64,000 bases of DNA from Escherichia coli. GTDB lineage: Bacteria > Pseudomonadota > Gammaproteobacteria > Enterobacterales > Enterobacteriaceae. Positions 59,799 through 59,978 of the stretch are shown here, piece after piece; the stretch's first letter is position 1; the number at the start of each line of letters is the position of its first letter. A program made the translations under genes and the position numbers. The stretch is taken from assembly GCF_013122565.1 (NCBI RefSeq), contig NZ_CP053258.1. The stretch is one strand, 5' to 3'. The notes under the pieces were generated by a model, which saw only the letters and a program-made list of their open reading frames with translations, searched no databases and had not been told where the DNA came from.

Positions 59799-59850
59799 AG
59801 ATCCCCTCCGGTCAGAATTCGGTAATGGTTCTGCTACACGAAGAAGGTAT

Positions 59851-59866
59851 TGCAAGCGGTGTGCCA
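59851..59866 (-). promoter_or_regulatory. sigma54 (-24/-12) promoter of glnK-amtB: TGGCAC-N5-TTGCA
   Basis: The minus strand reads TTTCTGGCACACCGCTTGCAATA about 50 nt upstream of the glnK ATG. GCAC/GTGC dyads further upstream (about 59919..59975) resemble NtrC enhancer sites. Confidence 0.7.
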
Positions 59867-59978
59867 GAAATGAAAAACGAGAAAGAGAGCAGGAAGTTAA
59901 GAAGTTTGAAAATGAAAACGCACTATGACAGTGCACAGTGCGTTACATTTTTGCACCAACGATGAAATATTGCGCTAT

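Follow-up and report, generated by a model that had tools for sequence, protein, structure and literature searches.

Introduction

How is the glnK-amtB operon of Escherichia coli switched on from the short spacer that separates it from the upstream gene mdlB, and does this spacer hold a second signal besides its promoter? The question arises from an earlier prediction for a window of 64,000 nucleotides (the whole stretch of DNA analyzed here), in which a sigma-54-type promoter and NtrC-like dyads were proposed upstream of glnK-amtB. Our analysis leaves little doubt that the element is the native E. coli glnK-amtB promoter (glnKp), driven by sigma-54 and NtrC under nitrogen limitation. This promoter is already known and a textbook case of sigma-54/NtrC control, for which ChIP-seq, gSELEX, reporter and expression data have been published, and papers citing the original work attribute it to van Heeswijk et al. 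(1996) and Atkinson et al. (2002). The only previously unreported detail is an overlap between its enhancer and a terminator-like hairpin behind mdlB, whose reading as an intrinsic terminator is moderately supported by the distribution of a T-tract and by one covarying base pair.

Results

The mdlB-glnK spacer

The minus strand of the window carries, in this order, mdlA, mdlB, a spacer of 180 nt (59978-59799), glnK and amtB. The region singled out in the original prediction, 59799-59978, is exactly this mdlB-glnK intergenic spacer. It is bordered by the following features:

59979..59981, minus strand: stop codon TGA of mdlB (open reading frame 59979..61874; annotated as mdlB in MG1655 and other genomes), which is co-directional with glnK and lies upstream of it
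59460..59798, minus strand: glnK (PII-2, 112 aa), with the ATG at 59798..59796, from the list of open reading frames and annotation
58144..59430, minus strand: amtB (ammonium channel, 428 aa), co-transcribed with glnK
59803..59809, minus strand: glnK Shine-Dalgarno sequence GGAGGGG, read directly from the sequence

A stretch of 401 bases around the spacer is present in 5423 of the 5426 complete E. coli genomes, where the flanking genes are annotated as mdlB and glnK. The spacer and its flanks (59790-59990) are 100% identical to those of MG1655, and a window position x therefore corresponds to 471822 + (59798 - x) in U00096.2 and to 472598 + (59798 - x) in NC_000913.3. Between 59400 and 60100 no Rfam family matched at E ≤ 1, which means that no known leader RNA or sRNA is located there.

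A sigma-54 promoter core upstream of glnK

The start of transcription is set by two features:

59851..59867, minus strand: sigma-54 (-24/-12) promoter core CTGGCACACCGCTTGCA (17-mer), with the GG at 59865-59864 and the GC at 59853-59852
59840, minus strand: predicted +1 of transcription, which leaves a leader of 42 nt

The string TGGCAC-N5-TTGCA had been assigned to 59866..59851 on the minus strand, about 50 nt upstream of the glnK ATG. It is indeed located there, its 3' end lies 53 nt upstream of the ATG, and the exact pattern occurs only once in the 64-kb window. With a -24 GG and a -12 GC at the fixed spacing and in the context TGGCAC-N5-TTGC the core has the hallmarks of a sigma-54 promoter. 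If one mismatch is allowed, the window holds two matches against 2.2 expected, so that the core taken alone is not rare. A matrix was built from intergenic sigma-54 sites mapped by ChIP-seq (41 published sites, glnK excluded). In this leave-one-out matrix the glnK core reaches 16.0 bits, which equals the median of the sites already known (rank 21 of 42), and a score as high turned up somewhere in 44 of 100 randomised windows. Only three window positions reach at least 14 bits and all of them are published in-vivo sigma-54 sites, namely OS03 at glnK, IS02 within the ybaT gene and IA05, which lies within acrR in antisense orientation.

Occupancy of the core by sigma-54 is documented by published data on the identical sequence. 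The ChIP-seq site OS03 consists of the same 17-mer, CTGGCACACCGCTTGCA (FAT 18; Bonocora et al., 2015, PMC4591121), and its motif center at 471761 (U00096.2) corresponds to window position 59859. A gSELEX peak of the RpoN holoenzyme in the mdlB>glnK spacer likewise contains this 17-mer (Shimada et al., 2021). The comparison with the characterized glnK promoter, which had been suggested as a check, therefore ends in identity: it is the same promoter, with 100% identity to MG1655 and with the 17-mer and coordinate of OS03.

The transcription start at 59840 is predicted from the rule "motif center + 19" given in PMC4591121, where 42 nt are stated to lie between the predicted start and glnK and the promoter is marked "P", that is predicted in EcoCyc (2015). 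The same rule puts the two boxes of glnAp2 at exactly -140 and -108. Sigma-54 promoters are expected to start about 11-12 nt downstream of the GC at -12. A mapped transcription start for glnK was not found in the literature searched, and the exact start near 59840 is a predicted one.

NtrC boxes upstream of the core

NtrC sites were scored with a palindromic matrix that was seeded with the published consensus TGCACCAnnnTGGTGCA and trained on 11 other NtrC-bound sigma-54 promoters of MG1655, each oriented on its sigma-54 core, by hard expectation maximization with at most two sites per promoter and with glnK excluded. Soft expectation maximization was discarded, as it ended in a weak motif rich in AT with some 65 "sites". 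The matrix obtained by the hard procedure places the glnAp2 sites exactly where they have been published (-140 and -108); its training sites have a median of 12.1 bits (range 5.7-17.3). In the glnK upstream region it points to the following elements:

59939..59955, minus strand: NtrC box A, TGCAAAAATGTAACGCA, centered at -107 (11.4 bits, rank 6 of about 64,000 window positions)
59919..59935, minus strand: NtrC box B, TGCACTGTCATAGTGCG, centered at -87 (11.2 bits, rank 7), promoter-proximal and the best conserved
59952..59958, minus strand: TGGTGCA, a perfect NtrC right half-site (7 of 7 positions), invariant in 15 distinct Enterobacteriaceae sequences
59971..59987, minus strand: weak, uncertain NtrC-like box AGCGCCTGAATAGCGCA, centered at -139 (7.9 bits) and overlapping the mdlB stop codon

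Thus two 17-bp dyads related to TGCACCAnnnTGGTGCA and a perfect TGGTGCA half-site are present, and at least two NtrC sites (centers -87 and -107) fall into the range of roughly 70-200 bp upstream of the sigma-54 core. The centers of boxes A and B are 20 bp apart, and similar pairs with a distance of about 21 bp are found at rutA, ddpX and patA. In the window roughly one position per 9 kb scores at least 11 bits, and about 11 bits is a value in the mid to low range. The combination is rare: a sigma-54 score of at least 14 bits, joined by a pair of NtrC boxes that each reach at least 9 bits and are centered between -160 and -60, is found in the window only at glnK, and in none of 300 randomised windows. 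A cluster of NtrC-like and sigma-54-like matches at 53037-53066 was taken as a chance occurrence and is absent from the published list of sigma-54 sites.

The matrix scan that had been proposed as a check hence speaks for both parts of the promoter (16.0 bits for sigma-54, 11.4 and 11.2 bits for the NtrC boxes). The GCAC/GTGC dyads had been likened to NtrC sites on the basis of the string ttggtgcaaaaatgtaacgcactgtgcactgtcat, which is present at 59959..59925. Their NtrC-like nature is borne out, whereas the extent of the string needs correction: it ends in the middle of the promoter-proximal box, the right half of which, AGTGCG, follows at 59924..59919. Also missed were TGGTGCA as a separate element and the fact that the dyads form a terminator-like hairpin after mdlB.

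Which of the boxes NtrC contacts (-87, -107 or the half-site near -120) is an assignment from matrix and alignment and should be read as provisional. TGGTGCA may belong, as the right half, to a degenerate box centered at -120, or may overlap with the left half of box A. Its invariance suggests that the distal contact may be the half-site box near -120, either instead of box A or in addition to it.

Conservation of the promoter architecture

For a comparison across species one genome per species was used, yielding 79 glnK loci, most of which have amtB after glnK; three of them (L015, L016 and L017) encode the same GlnK. At 50 glnK-amtB loci a sigma-54 core of at least 13 bits is combined with at least one NtrC box of at least 10 bits located 60-170 nt upstream. 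These loci are spread over Enterobacterales, Pseudomonas (with boxes at -142 and -109), Marinobacter, Acinetobacter and some Betaproteobacteria, and only in Enterobacterales is mdlB found upstream of glnK. The occurrence of the sigma-54/NtrC layout with or without mdlB upstream indicates that the enhancer travels with glnK.

An alignment of 15 distinct Enterobacteriaceae sequences revealed four invariant blocks: TGGTGCAA (59958-59951), TGCAC (59935-59931), GTGC (59923-59920) and TTTT (59918-59915). The first three consist of NtrC half-site letters. Box A is present in Escherichia, Citrobacter and Enterobacter and has been lost in Klebsiella-type loci. The orthologue of box B scores 12.6-17.7 bits in other genera, the highest value belonging to a near-perfect dyad in Klebsiella-type loci. 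NtrC boxes are therefore conserved together with the gene they regulate.

Published evidence for nitrogen control

Control by nitrogen limitation, the functional part of the original prediction, is well documented. An NtrC ChIP-seq peak with 39.7-fold enrichment was assigned to glnK-amtB, and glnK mRNA was not readily detected in a glnG deletion strain and was restored by complementation (Brown et al., 2014). An NtrC gSELEX peak lies in the mdlB>glnK spacer (Shimada et al., 2021); the supplement text of that study contains no NtrC-box entry for glnK, which is listed in the RpoN table only. Schumacher et al. (2013) described glnKp as a "simpler" promoter that depends exclusively on NtrC~P and has a 400-fold range. 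In Salmonella, the orthologous glnK fragment responds to nitrogen with an increase from 1.1 Miller units (nitrogen excess) to 1778 Miller units (nitrogen limitation) in a sigma-54-dependent manner. Published experiments on the identical sequence or on the orthologue have thus established sigma-54 occupancy, NtrC occupancy at the level of the spacer, glnG dependence and nitrogen control, while the matrix scores, the rarity of the arrangement by chance and its conservation are direct observations of the present work.

The 80-bp bin to which NtrC was assigned by ChIP-seq (471741-471821) corresponds to window positions 59879-59799. This bin includes the sigma-54 core, and its distance to the boxes, which are located upstream, is 40-76 bp. 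The same offset is apparent at gltI, glnH, rutA, ddpX, astC and nac when the bins of Brown et al. are compared with the motif centers of Bonocora et al. As it recurs at these six other promoters, it is probably a property of the dataset and not evidence against the boxes.

A terminator-like hairpin within the enhancer

The DNA that contains the NtrC boxes can also be looked at as the 3' end of the mdlAB transcript:

59917..59944, minus strand: RNA hairpin AACGCACUGUG/CACUGU/CAUAGUGCGUU (11 bp, 6-nt loop), candidate intrinsic terminator of mdlAB
59909..59918, minus strand: T-tract TTTTCATTTT, directly after the hairpin and box B, with a TTTT that is invariant in the 15-sequence alignment

The hairpin (59944-59917) begins 34 nt past the mdlB stop codon and was flagged by a terminator scan. 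It has a folding energy of -14.4 kcal/mol (z = -3.9), a stability reached by none of 200 shuffled sequences. The right half of box A, the spacer of 3 nt and the two leading nucleotides of box B make up its 5' arm, and the right half of box B makes up its 3' arm. The spacer bases 59938-59936 therefore belong to the stem and to neither box, and the letters 59933-59931 in the left half of box B are not paired. The tail behind it reads UUUUCAUUUU, that is the U-tract is interrupted. A stable G+C-containing stem-loop is hence followed by a U-tract downstream of a co-directional gene, as is expected of an intrinsic terminator. Hairpins as strong as this one with a T-rich tail occur seven times in the window compared to 0-3 times in randomisations, and the recognizable ones are situated at gene ends. 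Some folding is inherent to any palindromic NtrC box, and box B alone folds at -6.4 kcal/mol. A T-tract directly behind the box is not common to NtrC sites in general: at the other Ntr promoters of E. coli it is missing from all 20 boxes, and among 36 glnK loci without mdlB upstream it occurs at 3.

The hairpin is conserved in 12 of the 15 distinct sequences (83% of cells paired). One pair covaries, being C-G in seven sequences and U-A in five, and its 5' partner resides in the spacer between boxes A and B; all other pairs are invariant or changed on one side only. Ten further Citrobacter-type loci provided no new stem variants for the covariation analysis. Both hairpin and T-tract are found again in E. 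albertii, Citrobacter, Enterobacter and Superficieibacter-type loci, with folding energies from -11.6 to -18.4 kcal/mol, and across these loci the distance of the hairpin to the promoter varies from -87 to -141, a shift of up to 54 nt. In Klebsiella-type loci a shorter hairpin (-11.3 kcal/mol) arises from the perfect box. The T-tract is missing in Yersinia, Rahnella, Photorhabdus and Acerihabitans, although these genera possess both an upstream mdlB and the box.

A published anti-Shine-Dalgarno element

A further element is located immediately upstream of the predicted transcription start:

59841..59847, minus strand: CT-rich heptamer CCTTCTT (-7..-1), described in the literature as the anti-Shine-Dalgarno "insulator" of glnKp and included in RNA only if transcription reads through from upstream

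A 7-nt CT-rich region centered at -4 of glnKp silences the translation of read-through transcripts (Levy et al., bioRxiv 10.1101/086108), and CCTTCTT is the element mutated by these authors. Their assays were performed with a 50-bp glnKp fragment and a synthetic ribosome binding site, whereas in the native arrangement the motif is about 32-38 nt away from the Shine-Dalgarno sequence. In the minimum free energy fold of the read-through RNA CCTTCTT pairs with the glnK Shine-Dalgarno sequence (59809-59803), although the overall fold does not exceed that of shuffled sequences in stability (z = +0.49). CCTTCTT is absent from the native 42-nt leader. A terminator upstream and the anti-Shine-Dalgarno element downstream would constitute two successive barriers to read-through from mdlAB.

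Discussion

As the native glnK-amtB promoter, the spacer most probably works by the standard mechanism. Sigma-54 RNA polymerase occupies the -24/-12 core (59867-59851) as a closed complex that is unable to initiate by itself. Upon nitrogen limitation NtrB phosphorylates NtrC, and NtrC~P binds the upstream dyads, presumably box B (-87), box A (-107) and/or TGGTGCA near -120, and assembles into an oligomer. Via a presumed loop of about 60 bp of T-rich DNA this oligomer reaches the polymerase and opens the promoter at the expense of ATP, such that transcription from a predicted start near 59840 yields a glnK-amtB mRNA with a 42-nt leader. The IHF consensus is absent throughout the spacer (59799-59978) even if one mismatch is allowed, and IHF-assisted looping is therefore not proposed. 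It has been put forward in the literature that activation of glnK and nac has to await a rise of NtrC~P at the exhaustion of ammonium. The weakness of the glnK boxes relative to those of glnAp2 (about 11 versus 16-17 bits) agrees with such a dependence on NtrC~P accumulation.

The glnAp2 promoter of E. coli (glnALG) is the obvious system for comparison. Activator and sigma factor are the same, both promoters have two upstream dyad boxes on the same helix face, and in both the loop lacks an IHF consensus. On the other hand, the glnAp2 boxes score 16.2 and 16.8 bits compared to 11.4 and 11.2 bits for glnK, and they are 32 bp instead of 20 bp apart and located about 20-30 bp further upstream. Furthermore, the glnAp2 enhancer overlaps with a sigma-70 promoter, glnAp1, while that of glnK overlaps with the terminator-like hairpin of the upstream gene. 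Salmonella Typhimurium glnK-amtB (STM0462), which was compared at the core only, has the orthologous core TGGCACATCCTTTGCAAT, a sigma-54 ChIP-chip signal and nitrogen induction, and differs by three substitutions in the core spacer. With the E. coli glnKp of the literature the element shares locus, identical sequence, sigma-54 17-mer, NtrC dependence and induction upon starvation; the box positions given here are our own assignments.

Two other explanations would deprive the spacer of part of this function. Of the 135 sigma-54 sites that have been mapped, the majority lie inside genes and have no known output, including the two others in the window, and in 2015 the EcoCyc status of the glnK promoter was still "predicted"; one may thus ask whether the sigma-54 motif is transcriptionally silent and glnK is expressed from another promoter. 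However, the glnK motif is intergenic, correctly oriented and 42 nt away from glnK, a scan of 59400-60300 found no sigma-70-like promoter, the orthologous fragment from Salmonella is dependent on sigma-54 and nitrogen, glnK mRNA requires glnG, and the core is conserved at glnK-amtB across Gammaproteobacteria, all of which makes a silent motif extremely improbable. It is also conceivable that the GCAC/GTGC dyads are not NtrC sites at all and serve solely as a terminator, with NtrC acting from solution or through other sequences. The hairpin with its T-tract is indeed a good terminator candidate, and the dyads lie outside the published NtrC ChIP bin. Nevertheless, the invariant positions are the letters of NtrC half-sites (TGGTGCA, TGCAC, GTGC) and not those of the whole stem, and the orthologous box, often nearer to the consensus (up to 17.7 bits), persists where T-tract or mdlB are missing. 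Moreover, the NtrC matrix, trained without glnK, revealed no other candidate boxes in the spacer. We regard a role of the dyads in termination only as very unlikely.

The native sigma-54/NtrC promoter is thus retained as the explanation of the element, and the hairpin raises the possibility that it should be extended, not replaced. The 28-nt element at 59944-59917 may be read twice, as DNA by NtrC, in the form of enhancer boxes, and as RNA, in the form of a Rho-independent terminator of mdlA-mdlB. We put this forward as a tentative proposal whose chances we rate at a little below even. A polymerase arriving from mdlB would transcribe hairpin and U-tract and be released about 35 nt before the sigma-54 core, which would keep read-through out of glnK-amtB and off the poised closed complex; the anti-Shine-Dalgarno element at -7..-1 would act as a second barrier by blocking the translation of transcripts that escape. 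The proposal draws on the stability of the 11-bp hairpin and its position 34 nt behind mdlB, on the excess of such hairpins over randomised windows and on the conservation of hairpin and T-tract in several genera despite a shifting distance to the promoter. It gains further weight from the TTTT, which is invariant here and rare after NtrC boxes elsewhere, and from the pair covarying from U-A to C-G, the 5' partner of which falls between the boxes, in a spacer on which no constraint by NtrC is expected. In addition, box A appears to deviate from the NtrC consensus exactly where the stem is thereby lengthened. Against this stand the facts that the single covarying pair probably goes back to one evolutionary event and that most pairs are invariant, that a palindromic box folds to some extent anyway, and that Yersinia and the other genera named above do without the T-tract. 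The Term-seq supplements of Adams et al. (2021) and of the TERMITe paper contain no entry for an mdlB RNA 3' end, and no publication mentioning an mdlB terminator was found in the literature searched. The T-rich DNA could also serve looping or bending instead. In comparison with canonical Rho-independent terminators the G+C-containing 11-bp stem, the 6-nt loop, the U-rich tail and the distance of 34 nt from the stop codon are alike; the differences are that the stem upstream of glnK is built from activator binding sites and that its U-tract is interrupted.

As regards the promoter itself, the locus serves as a positive control: a call made from sequence alone was right in coordinates and mechanism, and none of the three in-vivo sigma-54 sites published for the window was missed by the matrices built in this work. 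The overlap of enhancer and terminator-like hairpin, if real, would be a compact example of overlapping signals at the DNA and RNA level and of relevance to synthetic circuits that make use of the glnK upstream region. Since Yersinia, Photorhabdus and their relatives possess the box without the T-tract, the overlap would date to within the Enterobacteriaceae. If the element is indeed used twice, the departures of box A from the NtrC consensus would be the price for keeping the stem. Together with the anti-Shine-Dalgarno element, glnK-amtB would then be insulated in layers, by termination first and by translational silencing thereafter, and such layered insulation could explain the very low basal level of glnK-amtB.

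Sigma-54 and NtrC matches elsewhere in the window

Beyond glnKp, the sigma-54/NtrC promoter of glnK-amtB, scans with matrices trained without glnK returned the following matches:

19719-19735, minus strand: sigma-54 match CTGGCACTGGTTTTGCT, 16.7 bits, inside a 430-aa ORF (19172-20464, ybaT)
46594-46610, plus strand: sigma-54 match TTGGCGCGTTTCTTGCG, 14.5 bits, antisense within a 215-aa ORF (45988-46635, acrR)
53037-53066, between two plus-strand ORFs: a pair of overlapping NtrC-like boxes scoring 13.3 and 12.3 bits
53039-53055, minus strand: weak sigma-54-like match, 12.3 bits, adjoining these boxes

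The ybaT match has the highest sigma-54 score of the whole window and corresponds to the intragenic ChIP-seq site IS02, while the acrR match corresponds to site IA05, which is directed towards acrA (Bonocora et al., 2015). The 13.3-bit box is the window's maximum for NtrC; the cluster at 53037-53066 to which it belongs does not appear among the published sigma-54 sites and has probably arisen by chance.

The motif centres of the ybaT and glnK sigma-54 sites are separated by 40,132 nt in the window (19727 to 59859) as compared to 40,776 nt in MG1655, the latter value being derived from the U00096.2 coordinates of Bonocora et al. (2015). The two strains must therefore differ by a net 644 nt somewhere between both sites, and despite this difference the glnK spacer is the same in both.

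At glnK, gltI, glnH, rutA, ddpX, astC and nac, the 80-bp bins that Brown et al. (2014) give for NtrC ChIP-seq coincide with the sigma-54 cores and not with the NtrC boxes, the glnK bin corresponding to 59799-59879. This offset either stems from data processing or arises because NtrC, when looped, is cross-linked to the promoter complex.

Elements in and around glnKp

59971-59987, minus strand: weak NtrC-like box AGCGCCTGAATAGCGCA, 7.9 bits, centre -139, overlapping the mdlB stop codon
59917-59944, minus strand: RNA hairpin, 11 bp, -14.4 kcal/mol, enclosing the NtrC boxes of glnKp
59909-59918, minus strand: T-tract, the U-rich tail of the hairpin
59841-59847, minus strand: CCTTCTT at -7 to -1 of glnKp, anti-Shine-Dalgarno 'insulator'

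Together with box A, the NtrC box centred at -107, the weak box mirrors the -140/-108 pair of glnAp2. NtrC boxes at -142/-109 are retained in the glnK-amtB promoters of Pseudomonas (loci L030-L055 of a scan with one genome per species), in which the leader from the predicted start to glnK spans about 150-200 nt as opposed to 33-78 nt in Enterobacterales.

The anti-Shine-Dalgarno 'insulator' of glnKp has been described by Levy et al. (bioRxiv 10.1101/086108). In RNA folds, the glnK Shine-Dalgarno sequence pairs with CCTTCTT in the read-through RNA only, the stability of the fold not exceeding that of shuffled sequences.

The hairpin, whose start lies 34 nt beyond the mdlB stop codon, is kept along with its T-tract in Escherichia, Citrobacter, Enterobacter and Superficieibacter, and one of its base pairs covaries. 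Hairpin and U-rich tail are a candidate intrinsic terminator that has bases in common with the NtrC enhancer.
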